Positions 1 to 23,330 of a DNA stretch of 23,413 nt are shown here, one piece after another. The translations under genes and the position numbers were made by a program. Under the pieces are notes generated by a model that did no database searches, had not been told where the DNA came from, and saw only the letters and a list, made by a program, of their open reading frames with translations. Every line of letters starts with the position of its first letter. Positions within the stretch are counted from its first letter, which is position 1. Origin of the DNA: Candidatus Gastranaerophilales bacterium (lineage in GTDB: Bacteria; Cyanobacteriota; Vampirovibrionia; Gastranaerophilales; Gastranaerophilaceae); NCBI GenBank assembly GCA_944326655.1, contig CALVEX010000159.1, positions 1-23,413 on the forward strand. The letters are read 5' to 3'.

Positions 1-112
1 TTGAAGGCGGCAACCGAAGATTCGTTTAATGCCGGCGAGCAAGACTGTCCAACCTTGGGAGTTTTTTATTTTAACACAATCAGAATCACAAGAGAAAGCC
101 TTGTTTTATTAT

Positions 113-3100
113 TTATTTTAACTGATATAAAGTACATGTCTTTGTAAATTTATCTTTATTTGTCCAGCCGCCGTACAGATCCATATAAATTTCATCACAA
201 TCTATATCGCCGAGAAAAGAAACTTGTCTTATTTCTTGTTGTAAATCAGAAATTGGAACATCATTATAAGACCCGCTCATATAAACCGGAGTATTTTCAA
301 CACCGGTAATTTCTTGAGAAACTTTTGCCGCATAATCAGCCATCGCAGATCTAACCTGTACTCCTGTCGCATTTGAAGGTTTATATTTGTTATTAATTTC
401 TATATTATCAATTATAAAAGCAGGTTTTCCATTGTCATCTTTGATAAAATAACACAGAGCATTTCCTATAGTTTTGCCGGAAGTATTATCAACAAGCTCT
501 ATCATATTATAGGCAGTATCCATCACAAAGTGAGGCATTGCAGATCCATTTCCGCCTCCCATACCTATACAACAGGTCGAGTAATTTCCCTGGAAAATAT
601 CTTTTTGCGGATTTCTGTCCCACATTTTTATTGTCAAATCAAGTTTTCTTTCGGATTTTCCTTCTTGTACTGACGAAATATCATCTAATCTTTGATTAAG
701 ATGCTCTAAAATAGTAAGTGTATTTCGAGGTGTCTGGGCTCTTTTAGGATCGGGATTTGCGGCATTTCCCTGTGCGCGTTTCCATACCTGAGCAAGCTGT
801 CCCTGTTCAGAAGTATCTGATAACATTTCAATAAGTTCTTTTAATTTATTTTTATTAGATAAATATTCTTTAGGTATAATAAACTCATCTCCTTTAATGA
901 ATTTAGGAAATTGTTTTTTCAAAAATCCTTTAACAGGAGTTTGCATTAACATATTTATATCTTCCGATACCTGAGCTGCTATTTGTTCTATATGTTCCGC
1001 ATTTTTATCTTTTGATACAAAATGAATTTCATGTTCTTTTGAGGGGTGTAACCATTTTTCATAATTTAAACCTGATGTCTCAAACATATTACGTGTGTTT
1101 TCATTTGCTATGCCATATATATTAGATGTATTGTGGATAAATTGATTAAAATCAGGTTCTAAAGAACCGGCTTTCATGATATCATTGAAAGATAAATCAT
1201 TGCCTGAATTTATTTCTTTTGAAAGCAAATGAATATAATTCATATCCCAAGACAATAATTTATCTTTGGGAATAGATGCGATTTGAGTATCAGTCAAACC
1301 TGAATTTTTCATTATTTGTTGGCATAAATCTGCATTCAACTGCCCTACATCAACTTTTCCCTGATCTATCATAGATTGTATGCCATCAAATGACATATTG
1401 TTTGCTTTATATGCAGTGATTAAATCTATAAATTCAATTTTTTGTGTAGGCATAAACGGTTTGTTGTCTGTATTGCAGGATTCCGACAGATTTTTTAACA
1501 AAGACATTTCATCCGGGGAAAAATCGCGTAAAATATCTATATACTCATCTGCATCATCAAATCTCATTCTCAATAAATGATTTACTGCTTCTTTGTCAAA
1601 AATTTCAGAAGCTGCCATTAAACAGCAATAATTACTATCAACAAATTCTTCTACTTCATCTCTTGCAAGTTCCGGGGTTTCAAATTCGCCATTGACATAC
1701 CATTCAGGATTTTTTAGCATTTTTTGTTTTAGAGCCTTTACCTTTGAATCCAGTTCTACTAAATCCTTATTTTTTAGCATTTTTAAAACATTATCATTAC
1801 GCGTCCAACAAATATCATCAATAAGAGGTTGAATACGCTCATTCGGGAAATCTGGATTGCGGCATAATTCTCTTACAATGTCTATAATATCCTTGCCTTT
1901 ATTTATGTGGCGCAATATACCTTCTATGTGTTCTTTCGGGAAATCTGGATTGTTGCACAATTCTCTTGCTAACTCTATATTGTCTTTATTTGTGCAACCC
2001 AATAATATACCTTCTATGTGTTCATTCGGGAAATCTGGATTGTTGCATAATTCTCTTGCAAGATTTATATTGTCTTTATTTGTGTAAGCCAATATACCTC
2101 TTATTTGCTTTTTCGGGAAATCTGGATTGTTGCACAATTCTCTTGCAAGGTCAATAATATCCTTGTCTTCATATATGTCGAACATTATACCTTTTATGTC
2201 CTCTTTCGGGAAGTCAGGATTGTTACACATTTTTCTTGCAATGTCTATATTATCTTTATCTGTGAATAACAATATACCACGTATGCGCTCTTTCGAGAAA
2301 TCGCCATTGTACATATCTTTTACAAGATCACGACGCTGATATGCATAATCCATATTATTTTTATCTGAGTAGAATAATATATCGCGCATGTATTCATTTG
2401 GAAAATCCGGATCATTGTATAATTCTCTTGCAAACTCTATGTTATCTTTATTTATGCAACCCAATATATCTTTTATTTGCTTTTTCGGAAAATCCGGATT
2501 GTTACACATTTTTCTTGCAATGTCTATAACATCCTTATCTCTACCTGCTAATAACAATATATCTTTTATTTGCTTTTTCGGGAAATCTGGATTGTTACAC
2601 ATTTCTCTTGCAAACTCTATATTATCCTTATGTGTGTAACCCAATATACCTTTTATGTGTTCATTCGGGAAATCTGGATTGTTACAAATTTCTCTTGCAA
2701 ACTCTATGTTATCCTTATGTGTGCAACCCAATATACCTTTTATGTGTTCTTTCGGGAAATCTGGATTGTTGCACAATTCTCTTGCAAGATCTATATTACC
2801 CTTATTTGTGAAGTCCAAAATATTATTAGCATACTCTCCGCCAATTCCTCTAGCCTTAAGTGTTTCAGCAAGCTCATCTTTCATCTTTGCAAATGTTTCA
2901 TCGTCTATCTCGATTTTTGCTGTTTCCGGTGCAGAAAGCTGTGCATGCTCGGGCACGTCTAATTCTTTGCCCTGCCGCGTAATAGGTGTCCCTTCATTCA
3001 TATCCGTTTTTATTTGTTCTCGTATAACTTCCTGTGTTTCCTGAGTTCTTCCCTGTGAAGCACCTGAAGATGTTTCCAATGATTGTTGCACTCTATGATT

Positions 3101-4978
3101 TTCTTCCGATTGTTTAGCAAAGATATTTGCCTGCGCTTGCTGAGGCGTTTCAGGATGGAAGGTCAGAGCTTCGGGAGCTCCTTCCACTTTGTAGCCCTTT
3201 GTTCCAAGTAACAATACGCTCAGTGCAAGTTCATTATCATTCTTTGCTGTTACTATTACTTCTCCGTTTCTAGTTAAGGTATAGGTCCCGTTTTCTTGTT
3301 TTTCTACATTTACGTTATTTAGTTTTGCACCCTTATGTATTGCAGAACCTGCAAACATCATTCCGTAGTTCATAAGTCCGTTTTGTGACAGGGATTCTTG
3401 TATTGTCATATCGCTTGTTAATCTGTCGAATATAACATCTGCTGTTGTTTCTGTCCCTGTTCCGATGATTTTGGGGATTATACTTTTAAATATTTGAGGA
3501 TTTTTTGACAGGATTTTTGCTACGCTGTCTCCTACAGGGCCTGAGACATATGCACCGAAGGCTCCGTACATCATGCCGTTTTTCAATTCTTCCCAGGCTT
3601 CTTGACCGGTTTGTTCTGTTATTCCTTTTTTGCTTGTTGCATCGCTTACTATTGTCACTGCAGGGTTAAATGCTGCAGTTGCTGTAGTTGCTATGCCTTT
3701 TACAGCGGCATTACTTACCATGGCACCTGCCTTTGTACCGAATTTTGCACTTGCTAGCTGCATTGCTTTGGAACCCAAGTTTTGCATGGCTGTTGAGCCC
3801 ATGGCAAAGTATGATGCTGCTATTGTTGTACCAATTTCGATTACGGCAGCCTGCGTCTTCATGTTAGAAATATATTCATTAATTATTTCTTCCGAGTTAT
3901 AATTTCCCATTGCCTGCTTGTATGCAGACTTGTATTCTTGCTCCAGTGTATTTTTGTCTAAAGAATGTATCTGAGAGTCATATTCATTTTTAGCATCTGT
4001 GAGGAAGCTTTTTAGTTCCTGAACGAATTTCTTATCATCATTTTGAGCAATACTATTTAATTGGGATACGTATTGTTGAGCAAGCTCTCTGTTGTTTCCG
4101 ACATGGGGTAAGATGTGGAGCATTGCTGCTTTTCTGACATTAACGGGGGCTGCATTATCTATGTTCGATAGAGTATTTGAAATATTATCTGATAGGTTTT
4201 GATATGCGTTTAGAGTTTGGAGGTTTGTATCTGCTTTCTGAAGATTTTGAAATGCCTGTTCATTATAATCTATACCATAGAGTTCTTTGAAATTTTTATT
4301 AAATTCTTCTGGATTGTTTGTCGTATTCTTAAGTCTGATAATCCCGCCTATTTCATTGCTGATTGCCTCTCCATTTTCCCAGACTGTAACAAAGTCGTTA
4401 CGGCCTGTTATTTTATCCCAGGTATAGTTGCCTATTGATTGAAGCCCCTGTTGAACGGCATCAAATGAAACTTTACCTATGCCGTTGTAGTAGTTTGTAA
4501 GGTTATCTCCGGCATTCCCTGCTTGTTGGAATAATTTATCAGCAGCGAAAGCTCTTGTTTGTTGGGATTGTTGTTCTAATAATTGTTCCTGGGAGAGATT
4601 TTGTTTTTGTTCAGTTTTTGAAGCGGAAATGGGAGATGGCTGTTGTTGAGTTTGATGATTATTTTGTTCTAGTGTGAGAGTAATATCATCCAGATATGTG
4701 CCGTTGTCATAAGTATCATATTTCCCAAAACTGAATCCATTGCCAAAGATAGAAGTAGAATTGAATCTGGAGTTGTATGAGTCCTGCCCTTCTTTTGTGC
4801 CAAAAGCCCATTCTTCGAATTCATCGCGGGACAGAATTCCGTTTGCAAGCATTTGTGCGGCAACATCATATTTTGACATATCTTTTTTTGATATATATTC
4901 ATTGCTTCTGAGTTGATCCAGGTGTGCCATAGCATAATCATCAATTTTTTTAGATATTGAATCGTTTGTTCCTGACAT
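113..4978 (-). CDS. Giant (1621 aa) multi-domain protein. The N-terminal region is Q/N-rich and polar. A Gly/Ala-rich hydrophobic segment follows (aa ~380-520). The central part has about 11-12 tandem 30-aa repeats (NIEFARELCNNPDFPKEHIKGILGCTHKD). The C-terminal ~250 aa domain is Cys-containing (QGNYSTCCIGMGGGNGSAMPHF...). No signal peptide. Candidate secreted effector, toxin or adhesin-like protein.
   Basis: Single uninterrupted 4866-nt ORF on the minus strand. ATG at 4978 is preceded by GAAGGAAG, with in-frame stops upstream. Plus-strand ORFs inside it are short, repeat-derived artefacts. Repeat periodicity is visible at both protein and nucleotide level. Confidence 0.8.
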   Translation of the reverse strand: MSGTNDSISKKIDDYAMAHLDQLRSNEYISKKDMSKYDVAAQMLANGILSRDEFEEWAFGTKEGQDSYNSRFNSTSIFGNGFSFGKYDTYDNGTYLDDITLTLEQNNHQTQQQPSPISASKTEQKQNLSQEQLLEQQSQQTRAFAADKLFQQAGNAGDNLTNYYNGIGKVSFDAVQQGLQSIGNYTWDKITGRNDFVTVWENGEAISNEIGGIIRLKNTTNNPEEFNKNFKELYGIDYNEQAFQNLQKADTNLQTLNAYQNLSDNISNTLSNIDNAAPVNVRKAAMLHILPHVGNNRELAQQYVSQLNSIAQNDDKKFVQELKSFLTDAKNEYDSQIHSLDKNTLEQEYKSAYKQAMGNYNSEEIINEYISNMKTQAAVIEIGTTIAASYFAMGSTAMQNLGSKAMQLASAKFGTKAGAMVSNAAVKGIATTATAAFNPAVTIVSDATSKKGITEQTGQEAWEELKNGMMYGAFGAYVSGPVGDSVAKILSKNPQIFKSIIPKIIGTGTETTADVIFDRLTSDMTIQESLSQNGLMNYGMMFAGSAIHKGAKLNNVNVEKQENGTYTLTRNGEVIVTAKNDNELALSVLLLGTKGYKVEGAPEALTFHPETPQQAQANIFAKQSEENHRVQQSLETSSGASQGRTQETQEVIREQIKTDMNEGTPITRQGKELDVPEHAQLSAPETAKIEIDDETFAKMKDELAETLKARGIGGEYANNILDFTNKGNIDLARELCNNPDFPKEHIKGILGCTHKDNIEFAREICNNPDFPNEHIKGILGYTHKDNIEFAREMCNNPDFPKKQIKDILLLAGRDKDVIDIARKMCNNPDFPKKQIKDILGCINKDNIEFARELYNDPDFPNEYMRDILFYSDKNNMDYAYQRRDLVKDMYNGDFSKERIRGILLFTDKDNIDIARKMCNNPDFPKEDIKGIMFDIYEDKDIIDLARELCNNPDFPKKQIRGILAYTNKDNINLARELCNNPDFPNEHIEGILLGCTNKDNIELARELCNNPDFPKEHIEGILRHINKGKDIIDIVRELCRNPDFPNERIQPLIDDICWTRNDNVLKMLKNKDLVELDSKVKALKQKMLKNPEWYVNGEFETPELARDEVEEFVDSNYCCLMAASEIFDKEAVNHLLRMRFDDADEYIDILRDFSPDEMSLLKNLSESCNTDNKPFMPTQKIEFIDLITAYKANNMSFDGIQSMIDQGKVDVGQLNADLCQQIMKNSGLTDTQIASIPKDKLLSWDMNYIHLLSKEINSGNDLSFNDIMKAGSLEPDFNQFIHNTSNIYGIANENTRNMFETSGLNYEKWLHPSKEHEIHFVSKDKNAEHIEQIAAQVSEDINMLMQTPVKGFLKKQFPKFIKGDEFIIPKEYLSNKNKLKELIEMLSDTSEQGQLAQVWKRAQGNAANPDPKRAQTPRNTLTILEHLNQRLDDISSVQEGKSERKLDLTIKMWDRNPQKDIFQGNYSTCCIGMGGGNGSAMPHFVMDTAYNMIELVDNTSGKTIGNALCYFIKDDNGKPAFIIDNIEINNKYKPSNATGVQVRSAMADYAAKVSQEITGVENTPVYMSGSYNDVPISDLQQEIRQVSFLGDIDCDEIYMDLYGGWTNKDKFTKTCTLYQLK
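1840..2840 (-). repeat. Tandem ~90-bp (30-codon) repeat array inside the giant CDS, about 11-12 units with high unit-to-unit nucleotide identity.
   Basis: The string ttcgggaaatctggattgtt[g/a]cacaattctcttgcaa recurs at ~1843, 1936, 2026, 2113, 2206, 2293, 2400, 2485, 2576, 2666 and 2753 (period 87-93 bp). The translated unit is ...ARELCNNPDFPKEHIKGILGCTHKDNIEF... Confidence 0.85.
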
Positions 4979-5857: not shown

Positions 5858-6823
5858 ATGGCTGTAATTAAGTATGAGGAAGATTTATATAAAGATTTTC
5901 AATCGGGTGTAAAAGAAGAAGAGCTTGAATTTATTGATATTGACGATGAAGAAGATGAACCTAAGACATTTAATTCAATATCGAATGATGATGATATTCT
6001 GCAAATGTATTTGAAAGATATCGGTAAGGTTAAACTTTTAAATTCTAAAGAAGAAAAAGCTCTGGGCAAACAAATTAAAGAGGGGAAAAAATCTCAGGCT
6101 GAAATTGCTAAAAGAAAGCTTGTACAAGCAAACCTGAGGCTTGTGGTAAGTATCGCGAAAAAATACATAGGCCAGGGTGTTCTTTTTATGGATCTTGTAC
6201 AGGAAGGGTCTTTAGGGTTGATTAAGGCTGCGGAAAAATTCGATTATTCAAAGAATTTCAAATTTTCAACTTATGCAACCTGGTGGATAAAACAGACAAT
6301 AATCAGGGCAATTTCAAATAATTCCCGAACAATCCGTATTCCTGTTCACATGACTGATAAAATAAGAAAATATAAAAAAACATACACAACTTTATCATTT
6401 GAACTCGGTCGTGAGCCATCTGATTTAGAGATTGCTGAACGTTTAGGGATTACTCTGAAACAGCTTTTGACAATAAAAAAATCGATTATTAAAGAGCCGA
6501 TAAGCTTGGAAACTCCGGTTACAGATGATTTGAATATAGGAGATTATATAGAAGACAAATCATACAGGTCTCCTGAAATCCAAACAAAAAATAATGTATT
6601 GAAAGGCAGTATTGAAAACCTTTTGTCAACTCTTCCCGAGCGGGAGAAGAAAATAATAAGCTGCCGTTTCGGAATAAACGGAGAAGTTCCGAAAACACTT
6701 GAACAATTGGGTGAAATAATGGGTTATTCAAAAGAGAGGATAAGGCAGTTAGAGGATTCCGCATTATCAAAAATCAGAGAGCGTAAGGAATTACAACATT
6801 TCAGGGATTTTATAGAGGATTGA
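5858..6823 (+). CDS. rpoD: RNA polymerase sigma-70 family factor (RpoD/SigA-like, 321 aa) with regions 1.2, 2.1-2.4, 3 and 4 recognisable.
   Basis: Region 2 signature [41 protein letters not shown]. Region 4 helix-turn-helix [27 protein letters not shown]. Start ATG preceded by GAGGGATG. Hairpin terminator follows. Confidence 0.9.
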
Positions 6824-9941: not shown

Positions 9942-11177
9942 TTAAAAAGGGTAATCATCTTTTATCTGCCATCCGTCACGCATAATTTTTGCAGCGCATG
10001 TGTATCCGCCGGATACTGCTTTAGCGTTGCAAGCCCAGGATGCTGTACTATTAATAGTGTTATCAGGCCAATCGTATCCGTAAGGTTTTAACATTTTGTC
10101 AGCCAGAATAAAGAAAAACAAATCCTTTCCTGCAACATTTGGTCCTTTATCAGAACCATTTATATCAATAAAAAATGCTGCATTATTTATTGATGTTGAA
10201 TAGAGTCCAATACAGACACCGTCTACGGTTTTAAAAGATGCAGTCCCCGGATTTATGGGGGAGGAGAGCCAGACTCCTGTCAACCATTCATACTGTGTAT
10301 TTTCATAAAACATTTTCCCGTTATAACACATATTTTCTGCATAGTCTCCGGGCGGATATGTTTTATCAATTTTAAATTCCGGTGCCAAATAATTATTAAC
10401 TATTTTTTCGGGGGAATTCCAATCCTGCCAGTTTTCCATTTCTCCATGTTTAATTTCTGCCATTATAATGGCCTGATTTGTCAGTGTGTAAGCTCGTTTT
10501 AATTTTGTAACAGTTTCATCCTTTTGATGTTTTGTAATTAATGTTGGTAAAGTCATCGCCGCAACCACGCCGATTATGCCGAGGGTGATTAGGACTTCTG
10601 CGAGTGTAAATGCGGCTCGACGTTGACCGTTCAGCAGGACTACGCGCGTAGCGCCATCTGCGATGGTAAAGGTAGCAAGTTTTTTCTTAAGTGAAGAAGT
10701 TAATAAGTCAATAGGTGAATAAGTTCGTTTCAGGGAATTGATATAGTCCCCTCTCCCCGGCGAATTGACCTTCGCGCGGGAGAGTACTCTTATACTCTTC
10801 CCTCTCCCCCTGCGGGAGAGGGTTAGGGTGAGGGGTGTTTGTTTGAAACCCATCCTAACCTTCCCTAATAAGGGAAGGAATTCTATGTCCCCTCCCTTGA
10901 GGGGAGGGGAATACAAGGGGAGGGTGATGCTCTTAAGTGAATAAGTTAATAGGTCAATAAGTGAATAAGTTCTTATCGGCAGCGTACCGCTGCAAAAGAT
11001 TACCGAGGAAATTTCACTATTATGCGATTGCGACGGTCGTTTCACACGCTGGCAATGACACGTATCTTGTGAGCTTTGCTCACAGATACCGGCATACCTT
11101 ATTACCCTCCTATCTTCCGATCTTCCATTAATGGCCTGCCCTCCTGCCTTCTTGAACTCTTGCCTTCTGTTTGTCAC
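9942..11177 (-). CDS. Prepilin-type (type IV pilin-like / pseudopilin-like) protein, paralog 1. The class-III signal motif AAFTLAEVLITLGIIGVVAAMTLP lies at codon ~189 of an open frame that starts at GTG 11177. The C-terminal ~220 aa globular part has the DINGSDKGPNVAGKDLFFF motif. The true 5' end is unresolved (see findings).
   Basis: Canonical FTLxE + hydrophobic helix. There is no in-frame ATG/GTG/TTG within 60 codons upstream of the motif. The frame stays open for ~188 codons back to a GTG whose UG overlaps the UGA stop of an RBS-equipped upstream ORF. Paralogous to 14013..15209. Confidence 0.6.
   Translation of the reverse strand: MTNRRQEFKKAGGQAINGRSEDRRVIRYAGICEQSSQDTCHCQRVKRPSQSHNSEISSVIFCSGTLPIRTYSLIDLLTYSLKSITLPLYSPPLKGGDIEFLPLLGKVRMGFKQTPLTLTLSRRGRGKSIRVLSRAKVNSPGRGDYINSLKRTYSPIDLLTSSLKKKLATFTIADGATRVVLLNGQRRAAFTLAEVLITLGIIGVVAAMTLPTLITKHQKDETVTKLKRAYTLTNQAIIMAEIKHGEMENWQDWNSPEKIVNNYLAPEFKIDKTYPPGDYAENMCYNGKMFYENTQYEWLTGVWLSSPINPGTASFKTVDGVCIGLYSTSINNAAFFIDINGSDKGPNVAGKDLFFFILADKMLKPYGYDWPDNTINSTASWACNAKAVSGGYTCAAKIMRDGWQIKDDYPF
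10688..11170 (-). repeat. Conserved hairpin-rich upstream cassette of pilin paralog 1 (shared with paralog 2 and partly with 23001..23330). It contains four polypyrimidine-loop-polypurine hairpins (10749-10785, 10800-10822, 10859-10878, 10889-10908) bracketed by a ~45-bp direct repeat (10690-10735 and 10925-10972, cttaagtgaataagttaataggtcaataagtgaataagttc). It also contains the palindrome TGTGAGCTTTGCTCACA (11068-11084).
   Basis: Direct sequence comparison with 14750-15205 (modules are nearly identical, with mosaic indels). Confidence 0.75.
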
Positions 11178-11221
11178 GCTTTCGGGGGGGGGGCGATTCT
11201 CAGCTTCTTATCTTTAACCAT
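11174..11221 (-). CDS. Upstream ORF of pilin paralog 1 encoding MVKDKKLRIAPPPKA (15 codons). It contains the C10 tract (encoding APPP). Its UGA stop overlaps the GUG start of the long pilin frame (gcGUGAca).
   Basis: AAGAGGAG-N7-ATG on the minus strand. The 10-G tract is confirmed independently by the plus-strand track ORF 11076..11297 (..CHAFGGGAILSF..). One extra C fuses this ATG in frame with the 9942..11177 frame. Confidence 0.5.
   Translation of the reverse strand: MVKDKKLRIAPPPKA
11184..11193. repeat. Homopolymeric G10 (C10 on the sense strand) inside the upstream ORF of pilin paralog 1. Candidate phase-variation tract.
   Basis: ttc + 10 g + cgatt, read directly from the sequence. Confidence 0.8.
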
Positions 11222-11255
11222 AACAAAACTCCTCTTAATTTCCAATAACATTTTT

Positions 11256-11284
11256 ATTATTTATGATTTTTCAGGTTTTGTCAA
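11256..11284 (-). promoter_or_regulatory. Sigma70-like promoter for pilin paralog 1 (TTGACA-N17-AATAAT), ~55 nt upstream of the upstream-ORF ATG.
   Basis: Minus strand reads tatTGACAaaacctgaaaaatcataAATAATaaaaatg. A perfect -35 hexamer. Confidence 0.45.
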
Positions 11285-11375: not shown

Positions 11376-14012
11376 ATGCCTAATTTTGAAAAGTTTACTA
11401 ATTATTCTCAGGAACTTTTGAATTCTGCAGGTGCAATTATGCAAGAACACAGAAATTCCGAGATGCAGCCCGAGCATATAATGCTTGCTATGATTAAGGA
11501 CAGCGGTGCGATAAAAGATTATTTGACCGAGTTAAAACTTTTAAATCAAGGTTTTATAGATAAAATTGTTTCCGTTGTTAATTCTTTCCCGACAATATCC
11601 GGGCCGCCTTCCGGGCAGGTATTTTTGTCTACCCAGACTTACAGACTGTTAGATTTGGCAGGTCAGCAGGCAGAAGAATTTAAGGATGAATTTATAAGCG
11701 CTGAATCAATCCTGCTTGCTATGACACGATTAGATAACAGCCCTATACAACTATTGTTGAAAAATTACAATGTTGATTCAAATAAAGTTTTAAATGTAAT
11801 GAAAAAAATAAGAGGTAATAAGAAAGTGGATAATAAAAATGCTGAAGAAAATATGAAAGCACTTGAAAAATATTCAACTGATTTAACAGCTCTTGCAAGA
11901 AAGGGAAAATTAGACCCTGTAATAGGCAGAGATGAAGAAGTCAGAAGAATTATTCAGGTATTAAACAGAAGAACAAAAAACAATCCTGTTTTGATAGGTG
12001 AGCCGGGAGTCGGTAAAACTGCAATAGTTGAAGGACTTGCCCAGCGTATTGTGCGCGGTGATGTTCCTGAAAGTTTAAAAGATGTTAAACTTGTTTCTCT
12101 TGATATGGGAGCACTTGTTGCAGGGGCTAAGTTCAGAGGCGAGTTTGAAGAACGTTTAAAAGCAGTATTGAAAGAGGTTGAAGATTCAAACGGCGAAATT
12201 GTAATGTTTATTGATGAGTTGCATACAGTTGTTGGTGCAGGTGCAACAGAAGGTTCAATGGATGCAGGAAACCTCTTGAAACCAATGCTTGCCCGTGGTG
12301 TTTTGAGAACAATCGGTGCTACAACAATTAATGAATATCGTAAATATATAGAAAAAGACCCTGCTTTGGAAAGACGTTTCCAGCCTGTTATGGTTGGTGA
12401 GCCCTCTGTGGAGGATACAATTTCTATCCTCAGAGGTTTAAAAGAAAAATATGAAGTTCACCATGGTATAAGAATTTTAGACAGTGCATTAATTGCTGCT
12501 GCAAAATTGTCTGACAGATATATAACTGACAGATTTCTCCCAGATAAAGCAATTGATTTGATTGATGAGGCCGCATCATCTTTGCGTATCGAAATAGATT
12601 CTATGCCCGAAGAAATTGATAAAATGATGCGTCAGAAAATCCAGCTTGAAATTGAAAGAGAAGCCCTTAAAAAAGAGGTTGACCCCTCCCCGAAATCTGA
12701 GATTTCGACCCTCCCTCAAGGGGAGGGTACTACAGAAACCAAAATTGCAGACCTTACTAAACATATAACAGATTTAGAGGGCAAAATTTCAAAATTAAAA
12801 GCTCAATGGGAACAAGAAAAGGCTTCAATTACAGGTGAAGCAGGTATTAAAGAAGAAATCGAAAAAGTTAAAAATAAAATTGAAGAGGCAGAACGGAATA
12901 CCGATTTGCAGACAGCTGCTGAACTTAAATATGGCAGACTGCTTGAGCTTGAAAAGCAATTAAAGGCTGTGCAGAATAAAGAAAAAACAGATAATAAATT
13001 GCTTAAAGAAGAAATAGACGATGAAGACATTGCAAATGTTGTAAGTAAATGGACGGGAATTCCGGTTAATAAACTCGTAGAAAGTGAAAAGCAAAAACTT
13101 CTTAATATGGAAGAAATATTGCATAAGCGTCTTGTCGGTCAGGAAGAAGCTGTTGATACGGTTGCAGATGCTATCCGTCGTGCGCGTTCAGGCCTAAAAG
13201 ACCCGAAACGCCCGATAGGTACCTTCTTATTCTTAGGGCCTACAGGGGTTGGAAAAACAGAGCTTGCAAAATCTCTTGCGGAATTTATGTTTAACGATGA
13301 AGATGCGCTTATACGTATTGATATGTCCGAGTATATGGAAAAACATAACGTTTCTAGATTAGTCGGTGCTCCTCCGGGATATGTCGGCTATGATGAAGGC
13401 GGTCAGTTGACTGAGGCTGTCAGACGTAAACCTTATTCGGTTGTTCTTTTTGATGAAATTGAAAAGGCTCATCCGGATGTATTCAATATTATGCTTCAAA
13501 TCTTTGATGATGGGCGATTAACTGATTCAAAGGGAAGAACTGTTGATTTTAAAAATACATTAATCATTATGACATCAAACATCGGAAGCGACATAATCCT
13601 TGAAAATACTTTAAATTCTCTGGGTTCAAAGCAGAATTTTGAGGATACTAAAGAAAAAGTTCTTGAAGTTTTGAGAAGCAGGTTTAAACCCGAATTTTTA
13701 AACAGAATAGATGAAACGATATTCTTTAGAGCCTTGAATATGCAGGATTTAACAAAAATTGTCGATATTCAAATGGAGTATTTAAGAAAATTGTTAAAAG
13801 ATCAGGAAATCGACTTTGAAATAACTGATGATGCCAAAGAATTTCTTGCAACCCGCGGCTTTAACCCTGTTTACGGTGCAAGACCATTAAAACGTGTCAT
13901 AAGACAGTTAATTGAAAACCCGTTATCAAAACAAATTTTGGCCCAGAAATTCCTGCGCGGCGACAAGGTTATCATTGATGTTGATAACGATGAAATTGTT
14001 TTCAAAAAATAA
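11376..14012 (+). CDS. clpB: Chaperone ClpB (Hsp100/AAA+ disaggregase), 878 aa, carrying an in-frame ~16-aa insertion in the M-domain.
   Basis: Both AAA+ modules ([37 protein letters not shown]), the M-domain coiled coil and the C-terminal [10 protein letters not shown] motif. Collinear with E. coli ClpB except for the extra [17 protein letters not shown] segment. Confidence 0.95.
12681..12729 (+). repeat. In-frame palindromic hairpin element inside clpB. It combines cgaaatc-tga-gatttcg with accctccc-tcaag-gggagggt, and belongs to the same CCCTCCC-loop-GGGGAGGG family found in the pilin cassettes.
   Basis: Sequence gacccctccccgaaatctgagatttcgaccctccctcaaggggagggtac. Its reverse complement (gtaccctcccc TTGA gggagggtc) is near-identical to the cassette hairpin gtcccctccc TTGA ggggagggg at 10889-10908 and 14766-14785. 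Confidence 0.7.
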
Positions 14013-15209
14013 TTACGGATTAATACATTGCCAGTAAGTTTTTGATGTATCTGTTTCACATGTGTTTAAAATTGCCCATTTTGCACATGTGAAACCCTGG
14101 TAATGTTCTTTCTCAGATGTAAAACAGCCCCCAAAGCGTGTATATGGTACTACGTTGTTATTTTTGTCTATGTTGAATGAAAATAAATCGTGTCCCAGAC
14201 GGTTAGGTCCTTTGGCCGGGCCGTTGATATCAATGTGATACCCTCTCGCTCCCCAAGGACTCATAAATATAAGAATACCACTATTAGTTAAAATAGATTT
14301 TTGAGTAAGTGAGTCCGCGTCTATATGTGCATATGTCCCTTTAACAAAAGAGTCATAACTTTTTTCCCTGCGCCCTGTGCAGTCTAAGTAATATTTTGTG
14401 CACAGTTGAGCATTTGGTATATACTTTATAAGTTTGTCTAAATGATTTGAATATGCTGTTCTCATATCAGATTCAGAATTTAAATCTTCATACAGCATCG
14501 GATAATCATTCTGCATAAGCAGATGAGCATTTTGAATTAATGAATAAGCTTTTTTGAACTGTGTTTCCAAAACATGCCGTTTGTAATTTGTAATAACCAC
14601 AGGTAAAGTCATCGCCGCAACCACTCCGATAATTCCGAGGGTGATGAGGACCTCTGCCAATGTAAACGCGGCCTGACGTTGACCATTCGGCATGGCTACG
14701 CGCGTAGCGCACTCAGCCAAAGTGAATGCAGGTATCAACTGAACGCGTTCCATGTCCCCTCCCTTGAGGGGAGGGGAATTCAAGGGGAGGGTGATGCTCT
14801 TAAGTGAATAAGTTAATAAGTCAATAGGTGAATAAGTTCGTTTCGAGAAGGTGTTCTGCCTCTCTTTGGAAAACTCTTGTTCAAATATTTTAAAGTTTAA
14901 TAAATATTGTGGCAGAGGGCGAAAAAGAGGGTTGGGGTGAGGTTCTATTATGTTCTGCGATTGCGACGGTCGTTCCACTCCCTCGCAATGACATGTATTT
15001 TGTGAGCTTTGCTCACCGATTTCAGCATACCCTCCTACCTTCCTATCTTCCAATCTTCCTGAATCAGCCCTCTCTCTAACTATCTCCCGAGGAGAGAAAA
15101 CGCGTTTCAACTTCCTTATACAGGAAAGGAAGTTATTTTTACGCGGGCTCTGCCCGCCGATAATAGCCTGACCTCCTGCCTTCTTGCCCTCCTGACTTCT
15201 TTTTGTCAC
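14013..15209 (-). CDS. Prepilin-type (type IV pilin-like) protein, paralog 2. MPNGQRQAAFTLAEVLITLGIIGVVAAMTLP lies at codon 173, with an in-frame ATG at 14693 just before the motif. The C-terminal part has the DINGPAKGPNRLGHDLFSF motif. The frame is open back to a GTG near 15209 that is coupled to an upstream ORF, as in paralog 1.
   Basis: Same architecture as 9942..11177. The stop codon abuts the clpB stop (convergent, zero spacer). A partial duplicate FTLAE motif (IPAFTLAECATRVAMPNGQRQAAFTLAEV) is present. Confidence 0.65.
   Translation of the reverse strand: MTKRSQEGKKAGGQAIIGGQSPRKNNFLSCIRKLKRVFSPREIVRERADSGRLEDRKVGGYAEIGEQSSQNTCHCEGVERPSQSQNIIEPHPNPLFRPLPQYLLNFKIFEQEFSKERQNTFSKRTYSPIDLLTYSLKSITLPLNSPPLKGGDMERVQLIPAFTLAECATRVAMPNGQRQAAFTLAEVLITLGIIGVVAAMTLPVVITNYKRHVLETQFKKAYSLIQNAHLLMQNDYPMLYEDLNSESDMRTAYSNHLDKLIKYIPNAQLCTKYYLDCTGRREKSYDSFVKGTYAHIDADSLTQKSILTNSGILIFMSPWGARGYHIDINGPAKGPNRLGHDLFSFNIDKNNNVVPYTRFGGCFTSEKEHYQGFTCAKWAILNTCETDTSKTYWQCINP
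14750..15205 (-). repeat. Conserved hairpin-rich upstream cassette of pilin paralog 2. It contains hairpin 14766-14785 (cccctccc-ttga-ggggaggg), hairpins 15083-15095 and 15111-15132, the gaataagt module 14797-14850 and the palindrome TGTGAGCTTTGCTCAC (15001-15016).
   Basis: Module-by-module similarity to 10688-11170. An additional ~140-nt segment is absent from paralog 1. Confidence 0.75.
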
Positions 15210-15253
15210 GCTTTCGGGGGGGGGGCGATTCTCAGCTTCTTATCTTTTTTCAT
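15206..15253 (-). CDS. Upstream ORF of pilin paralog 2 (MKKDKKLRIAPPPKA if the tract is C10). It has the same RBS, poly-C tract and UGA/GUG overlap as paralog 1.
   Basis: AAAAGGAG-N7-ATG on the minus strand. The 3' coordinate depends on the tract length (9 as I read the printed line; 10 implied by the frame of the supplied ORF 14013..15209). Confidence 0.4.
   Translation of the reverse strand: MKKDKKLRIAPPPKA
15217..15225. repeat. Homopolymeric G tract (9-10 nt) inside the upstream ORF of pilin paralog 2.
   Basis: I read gctttc + 9 g + cgatt. The adjacent block reads cctgcccttcttg. The ORF-track translation MTKRSQEGKKAGG requires cctgccttcttg instead, so the G run is most probably 10 and one of my two run counts is off by one. 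Confidence 0.6.
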
Positions 15254-15287
15254 AACAAAACTCCTTTTAATTTCCAATAACATATTT

Positions 15288-15317
15288 ATTATGAGCCAAT
15301 TTAATAGTATTTGTCAA
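15288..15317 (-). promoter_or_regulatory. Sigma70-like promoter for pilin paralog 2 (TTGACA-N18-CATAAT), positionally equivalent to the promoter of paralog 1.
   Basis: Minus strand reads ggaTTGACAaatactattaaattggctCATAATaaatatg. Confidence 0.45.
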
Positions 15318-23000: not shown

Positions 23001-23330
23001 ATGTGTAATACAGTCATTCTGTACCTCGGATTGTGCTTTGTGTTTCAGAAGTTAGTTGCAAGAAGTTCGGAAGGCAGGAAGGCAAGAGGTCAAGCCGTTA
23101 TCGGCGGGCAAGGCCCTCGTAATGACAATTACAAGTTTAACTTTTGCAGCGGTACGCTGCCTATACGAACTTCTCGTCCTAACGTCTTTACGTCTTATCG
23201 TCTGAAACAATACGAACCTCACCCCAGCCTCTCCTTGTAAAGGAGAGGGGACGATATCAGCTCGCCGAAACGAACTTATTCACCTAAACTCGTTTCACTC
23301 TTCACTCATCACAGTTCACTTAATATTATT
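23001..23330 (+). repeat. Third, degraded copy of the pilin upstream cassette (plus-strand orientation). It lacks the promoter, upstream ORF and poly-C module, has a frame-breaking stop, and retains one hairpin (cctctcctt-gtaa-aaggagagg, 23228-23249) and a diverged gaataagt module. A new gene starts at ~23405 (AGAGGG..ATGAAAA).
   Basis: Same-frame peptide similarity (VARSSEGRKARGQAVIGGQ...FCSGTLPIRT against paralogs 1 and 2). Nucleotide similarity to 11120-11170 and 15120-15200, including synonymous third-position differences. Confidence 0.6.

Follow-up and report, generated by a model that had tools for sequence, protein, structure and literature searches.

Palindromic repeats lying within genes are already known in bacteria, and what is new at the locus considered here is the type of the element and its host group. 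As far as the work of Ogata et al. (2000/2002) is quoted in later papers (PMC10969869, PMC3733652), Rickettsia palindromic elements (RPEs) are about 100–150 bp long, and each of their families encodes a conserved peptide. Repetitive extragenic palindromic (REP) sequences were found wholly inside open reading frames (ORFs) in several species, many of them in genes of replication or repair (Di Nocera et al. 2013, PMC3733652), and REPs and REPINs carry a conserved tetranucleotide, GTAG or CGTC, on one side of their stem-loop (PMC3733652). REPs are high in copy number, extragenic for the most part and often arranged as inverted doublets, and they flank the gene of a cognate Y1 transposase. The DNA analysed here, called the window below, is a stretch of 23,413 nucleotides (contig CALVEX010000159.1 of assembly GCA_944326655.1; 36.6% GC) from Candidatus Gastranaerophilales bacterium, and its clpB gene (11376..14012, plus strand) holds a compound palindrome that adds 14 residues to the chaperone ClpB. 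In our opinion, these residues are probably encoded by one copy of a dispersed DNA repeat that is palindromic and very small. Such an origin is preferred to an ordinary indel because the same 44-nt composite occurs at four loci outside clpB, at one of them in frame.

MITEs, or miniature inverted-repeat transposable elements, possess terminal inverted repeats and a target-site duplication, are derived from insertion sequences (IS) and usually measure 70–300 bp. The small dispersed repeats (SDRs) of Nostocaceae, 21–27 nt in length, are reportedly very small hairpin-forming mobile repeats that nest in other repeats and in genes. Among RNA families, Whalefall-1 is an orphan candidate small RNA, known from whale-fall metagenomes only and having no gene association (Weinberg et al. 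2010, PMC2864571).

Structure of the clpB insert and its distribution

The palindromic block (window 12683–12728) consists of a C-rich arm and two perfect 8+8 hairpins, all given here on the plus strand. Arm 1 (CCCCTCCCC, 12683..12691), recovered by the inverted-repeat search and by the three-arm pattern match, is an unpaired third C-rich arm, which in the inverted-repeat search is also complementary to positions 12720–12727 of arm 3. It is followed by an internal, or spacer, hairpin (CGAAATCT-g-AGATTTCG, 12691..12707; stems 12691–12698/12700–12707), seen in the minimum-free-energy structure of the RNA, and by a second hairpin formed by arm 2, a loop and arm 3 (ACCCTCCC-TCAAG-GGGAGGGT, 12708..12728; stems 12708–12715/12721–12728). 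A first-pass annotation, made by a model from the letters alone, had read a compound palindrome at 12681–12729; its sequence is as described, and both hairpins are 100% complementary. The core of the repeat measures about 44–48 nt and consists of ACCCCTCCCC, the 17-nt hairpin and ACCCTCCC-NCAA-GGGGAGGGTA, the last part being ACCCTCCC-TCAA-GGGGAGGGT in the clpB copy. The arms represent mirror repeats of the homopurine/homopyrimidine type. On its antisense strand, this copy has a G-quadruplex (G4) motif made up of four G-tracts with a hairpin loop. Hairpins of the type CCCTCCC-N3-8-GGGAGGG number three in the window versus 0.00 expected from 100 shuffles, and the heptamer CCCTCCC occurs nine times versus 1.0 expected from shuffles.

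As the same annotation had proposed, the palindrome is in frame within an intact ORF of 878 aa, where it encodes V435–T452. The nucleotide-conserved block that holds the insert, delimited by comparison with two contigs of another insert-bearing lineage (L001/L124), spans 12678..12732 on the plus strand and comprises these codons, and the net gain of filled alleles over empty ones, which have no insert, is 14 codons (42 nt). Four to five of the six reading frames of the element are open, and at least four are open in 59% of composition-matched shuffles. Such a number of open frames is usual for the base composition, and therefore the coding-compatible nature that had been ascribed to the element family looks like survivorship, or selection on the host gene, and a "designed" compatibility was rejected. 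A scan around the insert gave no promoter or terminator signal. An internal translation start behind the arm that resembles a Shine–Dalgarno (SD) sequence was dropped, as no ATG, GTG or TTG stands downstream. Arm 1 is preceded, at a distance of 9 nt, by a T-AAA-AAA-G run (window 12668–12675, codons L431-K432-K433), a non-canonical slippery-like site ahead of a strong structure; as empty alleles have it too, the run is probably irrelevant, and a -1 frameshift at this motif was dropped as well.

The domains of ClpB are the N domain, a pair of AAA+ modules, the M-domain, which is a coiled coil set into the first nucleotide-binding domain, and D2-small at the C-terminus. The protein of the window shows the complete architecture (Pfam Clp_N, AAA, AAA_lid_9, AAA_2 and ClpB_D2-small) and is 96% identical to an 865-aa ClpB of Gastranaerophilales. 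Named relatives among the closest ClpBs (94–96% identity) are 'Clostridium sp. CAG:768' and Candidatus Stercorousia faecigallinarum (Melainabacteria, Gastranaerophilales), and no identical copy of the protein was on record in an exact look-up. The collinearity with well-studied ClpBs that had been asserted earlier was borne out by PDB alignment: the protein is collinear with 1qvr and 4d2q except for the insert, at which E. coli ClpB has the same 14-residue gap as 118 of 120 related clusters considered below, and T. thermophilus ClpB has two 7-residue gaps. The insert maps to about residues 424–437 of T. thermophilus ClpB (KKEKDPDSQERLKA) and 431–446 of E. coli ClpB (KESDEASKKRL), a site that we take, in the 1QVR structure, to be the turn joining the first and second helices, where motif 1 of the M-domain has its tip. 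An AlphaFold2 model of the full protein, built from a shallow alignment, is poor overall (mean predicted local distance difference test, pLDDT, 38.8), and only its local helix-coil-helix pattern was used, namely helix 410–434, coil 435–452 (pLDDT <50 at 436–451) and helix 453–507. The insert now reads as a Pro/Ser/Gly-rich loop and represents a natural experiment on the tolerance of the tip of the regulatory M-domain of ClpB.

The comparison of orthologs covers the best 120 ClpB clusters. In 118 of them, a 14-residue gap is located exactly at the palindromes; these proteins read KKE-DDDDAKAK-VADL and are 863–867 aa long. Only one other lineage carries the insert (cluster P0096 with members P0121 and P0122), and it is a different species, whose clpB is 83% identical to that of the window at the DNA level, versus 86–87% for the nearest empty alleles. 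The segment is therefore lineage-specific and coincident with the palindrome, whose DNA is intact in the second species, as the first-pass annotation had expected of an ortholog alignment; the same peptide without palindromic DNA, named there as the sign of an ancient and ordinary indel, was not seen in the orthologs. More than 16 contigs, assembled independently in ENA, Logan and NCBI, carry the filled allele of the P0096 lineage, and it is thus stable and not an assembly artefact. It is scarcely credible that the insert is such an artefact or an ordinary lineage-specific indel of a variable loop with a coincidental palindrome. The site is indeed a variable turn, its sequence being different in T. 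thermophilus, in E. coli and in the empty alleles, but zero such hairpins are expected by chance and an identical 44-mer is present at four other loci.

Outside the insert region, the window ClpB is 98.3% identical to the empty alleles P0002, P0007 and P0010, and its identity to P0096, which is more distant than any other of the 120 clusters, is only 93%; hence these two filled alleles are not sisters. Nevertheless, they have in common the flank residues V435 and KIADLTKHI (versus KVADLTKQI in empty alleles), and informative sites place the window with the filled clade at a ratio of 13:5 in the insert flanks versus 66:179 elsewhere (Fisher P = 1.6e-4), so that a tract of about 0.2 kb around the insert looks recombinant. 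These residues and sites favour one event with recombination over two insertions. Most simply, a single insertion may have been followed by passage of the filled segment between species by homologous recombination within this tract.

Copies at other loci and the origin of the insert

JGI metagenome contigs were scanned with a codon-degenerate pattern accepting any synonymous version of the insert peptide. Only the canonical nucleotide sequence was recovered, at four loci outside clpB (taC-CCCTCCCCGAAATCAGAGATTTCGACCCTCCCGCAAGGGGAGGG-Taa), in copies 43/44 identical to the clpB copy of L001 and in host contigs of 34–37% GC. The copy in L132 lies between two genes, its G-rich end being separated by 8 nt from the ATG that follows, which belongs to a GerM-like gene, the copy in L135 is situated about 110 nt upstream of a tRNA, and the copy in L133 follows a short ORF, by eye a truncated HAD-like fragment. 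The fourth copy (L134, the same as L136/L137, from two independent assemblies) is inside a 3'-5' exonuclease gene in the opposite orientation. In this exonuclease (P0153), the element is translated as NPPLAGGSKSLISGRG inside a 31-residue insertion, which is missing from seven orthologs (50–78% identical, N-termini aligned); the named homologs belong to Gastranaerophilales or Gastranaerophilaceae. It constitutes a second coding insertion of the element, in frame and independent of that in clpB. In-frame insertion of the kind described for RPEs, which had been suggested from clpB alone, has thus acquired a second case, and the advice to look for further copies led to the same 44-nt composite at four unrelated loci. 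Together with clpB, five distinct composite loci were obtained, two of them in-frame coding and three non-coding. The exonuclease also has a second insertion of 10 aa (RQVSIVIPNC; L136 1300–1330) located 7 residues upstream and having no obvious palindrome.

When all four open frames of the element, joined into a 68-aa query, were compared by shared words with 5.8 billion protein clusters, two candidate clusters were obtained, none of them at E <= 10. They were not named by the search and are taken to be ClpB P0096 and exonuclease P0153. Since only two candidates were obtained among 5.8 billion clusters, coding copies of the element are rare. The scan of viral contigs for the element core gave 0 matches, and blastn against plasmids gave only two half-length matches at chance level with no annotation beneath.

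The element is similar to RPEs in being a palindromic dispersed repeat with intergenic copies as well as in-frame copies within conserved genes that are apparently functional, its peptide being placed where the fold tolerates it. By description, it differs from them in the core of 44–48 nt, the melainabacterial host, the three homopurine/homopyrimidine arms and the only two coding insertions known. It belongs to the same size class of 20–50 nt as REPs and REPINs and is likewise a dispersed stem-loop (PMC3733652; Bertels & Rainey 2011, PMC3116915), and its second host gene, which encodes a DnaQ-like exonuclease, is reminiscent of intragenic REPs in repair genes. However, the GTAG/CGTC tag is not conserved (GTAG stands 2 nt from the window copy only, on the antisense strand, and not in L001 or L132–L135) and the element ends AC...TA. 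The third arm and the internal hairpin of the clpB element are not REP features either, and the RAYT (REP-associated tyrosine transposase) gene of mobilised REPs was not seen in the window or in the loci read. With regard to MITEs, arms 1 and 3 form terminal inverted repeats of 8–9 nt, the size is below the usual range, and TA is present on both sides in 3/4 environmental copies (not in L134), clpB having GA...TA. As a very small hairpin-forming dispersed repeat, the element is also similar, by description, to the SDRs of the sister phylum, which are found only in Nostocaceae (PMC5861425). It falls outside RPEs by size and host, outside REPs by the tag and outside Whalefall-1 by score. Its behaviour corresponds to that of RPEs and intragenic REPs, i.e., of a small palindromic repeat that can be translated inside genes. 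In-frame insertion of palindromic repeats, exemplified by the classic RPEs and some REPs, would thus be extended to Melainabacteria, the non-photosynthetic sisters of cyanobacteria, and to an element unusually small for translated palindromic repeats.

According to the repeat-insertion scheme that we prefer, the repeat would have entered the codons of a turn, namely that at the tip of motif 1 of the M-domain, where the first coiled-coil helix passes into the second, and may have survived there owing to a length that is a multiple of three, the lack of a stop in that frame and the exposure of the turn to solvent. Its copying in trans could have been due to an activity that recognises hairpins, similar to REP/RAYT or to IS200/IS605, or else to templated repair, and the near-identity of the copies may result from recent spread or from constraints of recognition. 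Mobility, and with it the selfish character named in the earlier annotation, is deduced from dispersal and from presence/absence only, as neither a mobilising gene nor a clean duplication of the target came to light and the flanks in clpB are unalignable. A number of facts weigh against the scheme. Only five distinct composite loci and only two independent filled clpB lineages are known; the environmental copies have common extra AT-rich flanks that clpB is without; and the flanks in clpB cannot be aligned base for base with empty alleles, which leaves the inserted length at 42–54 nt. Neither a clean target-site duplication (in clpB and the four environmental copies) nor a transposase or RAYT gene (in the window and the loci read) was found. 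Finally, the rate of change in the element is below that of the flanks, and a function in place could be the reason instead.

The slow change deserves separate consideration. Between the two filled lineages (window versus L001/L124), there is 1 difference in the 54 nt GTTGAC...GGGTACT despite 17% divergence of clpB, and the next 45 nt are 69% identical. The single difference is T to A in the loop of the internal hairpin, and 17/18 insert codons are identical versus a gene-wide same-amino-acid codon rate of 0.618 (P = 0.002). In the L130/L131 variant, C is replaced by T in arm 2, and a G-U pair is retained on the sense RNA. GC content at third codon positions is about 62% in the element (hand count, 16 codons) versus 28% across the clpB gene, a foreign composition that counts in favour of the insertion of a repeat. 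Because of its slow nucleotide change and this high value, the block does not behave as an ordinary coding sequence. It may be supposed that the block is kept in clpB as a working nucleic-acid structure, either a pair of mRNA hairpins with sequestered SD-like GGGGAGGG that tunes translation, pausing or the temperature response of a heat-shock gene, or triplex- or G4-prone DNA, the repeat origin being secondary. The conservation, the sparing of structure by both substitutions seen, the fold of the whole block as sense RNA (-22.9 kcal/mol, z = -2.8), the mirror-repeat arms and the four antisense G-tracts are in line with this supposition. Nevertheless, we regard it as unlikely. Copies of the same sequence stand at unrelated loci in both orientations relative to genes, and a functional role in clpB is for this reason hardly the primary explanation; moreover, 118/120 related clusters do without the insert, the internal SD-like arm has no start codon behind it, the scan gave neither a terminator nor a promoter there, and selection on pairing cannot be shown from just two substitutions. 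A repeat that is near-unchanged across distant relatives makes the search for a mobilising or binding factor concrete.

Related modules in the pilin leaders

The other two CCCTCCC-N3-8-GGGAGGG hairpins of the window are located upstream of two paralogous pilin-like genes, A and B, that flank clpB. In the leader of gene A, a three-arm module without internal hairpin (10888..10926, minus strand) reads ACCCTCCCC-ttgtatt-CCCCTCCCC-tcaa-GGGAGGGG and lies in frame in a long leader ORF as ITLPLYSPPLKGGD. In the three-arm module of the gene B leader (14755..14793, minus strand), the G arm stops 2 nt before an in-frame ATG. Another module, with CUCUCC-type arms (10800..10835, minus strand; CCCTCTCCC-cctgc-GGGAGAGGG-tta-GGGTGAGGGG on the plus strand), resembles the consensus arms of Whalefall-1 without hairpin 2. 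One more three-arm module, CCTCACCCC-ag-CCTCTCC-ttgtaaa-GGAGAGG (23217..23250, plus strand), is followed by the 'cgaaacgaactta' leader motif and the window end.

The clpB insert and the leader modules have three arms and the TCAA loop in common, and the 17-nt internal hairpin, in place of which the pilin copy has 7 nt, belongs to the clpB type only. The earlier equation of the second clpB hairpin with the pilin-cassette hairpin is thus correct for arms and loop, but the two are not identical, and their match through the reverse complement was not upheld: the position of the third arm and the TCAA loop pair the clpB sense strand with the pilin-sense (minus) strand. The clpB insert represents a separate sub-type, marked by the internal hairpin, and its exact relatives lie elsewhere than in pilin leaders.

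This relationship bears on an explanation without transposition, in which the element was copied into clpB by ectopic gene conversion or templated break repair from a nearby leader module, or two independent insertions occurred at a hot spot. Module-rich pilin leaders are situated beside clpB, within 2 kb, in both filled lineages, and the nearest four empty genomes (L003, L138–L140; about 82 kb) have no modules of this kind, an association that counts for the repeat-insertion scheme as well. The common arms and loop, the missing target-site duplication and flanks that are rearranged and not cleanly interrupted also agree with such copying. We consider it quite unlikely, since the 17-nt internal hairpin is missing from every pilin leader read and is identical in distant non-pilin loci, and two separate insertions are disfavoured by the common flank residues and informative sites mentioned above.

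The leaders themselves (window 9942–11260 and 14013–15300; L001 12692–14004; L124 12661–13662) extend for about 540 nt upstream of the FTLAEV prepilin motif as chains of small GC-rich hairpin modules open in one frame, for example, gtcattgc...gcaatc, gctacgcgcgtagc and three-arm C/G modules. No in-frame ATG stands between the last leader module and FTLAEV in L124. Contigs of the filled lineage repeatedly end inside the leader, a behaviour suggestive of a repeat in many copies. In each pilin-like cassette, a strong SD (AAGAGGAG / AAAAGGAG) is followed by ATG, 8 codons and then a C10 tract (window 11184–11221 and 15216–15253, minus strand). The C10 frames as sequenced stop 3 codons further on, and a gain of one C (or a loss of two) joins the ATG with the long ORFs, 9942..11177 and 14013..15209, giving uninterrupted frames of 426 aa and 413 aa that run through all hairpin modules to the pilin stop. 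The C10 tract looks like a slipped-strand phase-variation switch, and on such a reading, translation in the ON phase would include the leader with its hairpin modules. A translated pilin leader, for which the first-pass annotation had looked to the clpB insert, draws better support from this SD-ATG-C10 tract, one C away from the leader ORFs.

In cassette B (window 14680–14760, minus strand), two prepilin-like N-termini, IPAFTLAEC ... AAFTLAEV, stand in tandem with a gctacgcgcgtagc hairpin between them, and this suggests past recombination between pilin 5' ends. Canonical G4 motifs of the window were found by motif search in pilin leaders only (10814–10835, 10901–10924 and 14768–14791, plus strand), on the strand antisense to the pilin genes, with 0.025 expected per shuffled window. 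In Neisseria, a G4 upstream of pilE drives pilin antigenic variation.

Whalefall-1 and three-arm modules in other phyla

The Rfam family Whalefall-1 (RF01762) aligns to the antisense strand of the clpB insert over the full 56-position model, which comprises hairpin 1 (pyrimidine and purine arms, UUGN loop), then hairpin 2, both variable and covarying, and a G-rich 3' tail. The score of the window insert is 29.6 bits (E = 4e-4 for the whole window), below the gathering score of 37, and scores of 21.3–27.2 bits, also below it, were obtained for L132, L133 and L135 and for two alphaproteobacterial loci (L060 and L122). The arms differ as well, the consensus being CUCUCC/GGAGAG and the clpB insert having CCCUCCC/GGGAGGG. 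Whalefall-1 was described as a non-coding RNA, not as a repeat or a coding insert. These data suggest that this orphan "RNA" family may be a repeat class and not a stand-alone small RNA.

In GTDB species genomes, the three-arm pattern occurs in many phyla among the matches listed, often as inverted pairs or at contig ends. Inverted pairs of a looser three-arm motif were found, among these matches, in Acetobacteraceae, Inquilinus and Kaistia; an inverted doublet of the composite was not seen at any of its five loci. Spacer hairpins of at least 5 bp are present in 9/16 long non-tandem spacers among the matches listed versus stems of about 2.8 bp in shuffles. These nine hairpins, from Alphaproteobacteria UBA1301, Kaistia, Rhizomicrobium, Acidimicrobiia, Aeoliella and Fimbriimonadaceae, differ in sequence. 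In a hand-picked set of 13, in which MAFFT aligned the spacer hairpins in register, 8/9 hairpin pairs show two-sided changes and 95% of cells are paired, values that overstate the support because selection was hairpin-based. The 143 three-arm matches listed in other phyla showed no consistent position relative to genes in a test for downstream start codons and ORFs. A metagenome-assembled genome of Acidimicrobiia (L020) has two composite three-arm copies in one contig, 111–160 (plus strand) and 6315–6364 (minus strand), the internal hairpins of which are distinguished by a compensatory pair (CCTCGAC/GTCGAGG versus CCTCCAC/GTGGAGG).

A broader proposal may be offered only tentatively, and we find it rather doubtful. 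The three-arm module (C-arm, optional covarying hairpin, C-arm, loop, G-arm) could be an unrecognised cross-phylum class of structured, mobile or recombination-prone DNA, triplex- or G4-capable, to which Whalefall-1 would belong. It might build phase-variable translated pilin leaders in Gastranaerophilales and occasionally land in essential genes, clpB being an example; recognition by a conserved enzyme would then account for copies that are nearly identical despite divergence at the family level. The formation of a triplex or G4 by the arms is a speculation from their composition.

Elsewhere in the window (113–4978, minus strand), there is an ORF of 1621 aa with no convincing Pfam domain. It contains repeats (1837–2820) in about nine diverged copies, which are 60–81% identical and spaced by 87–93 nt (29–31 residues).

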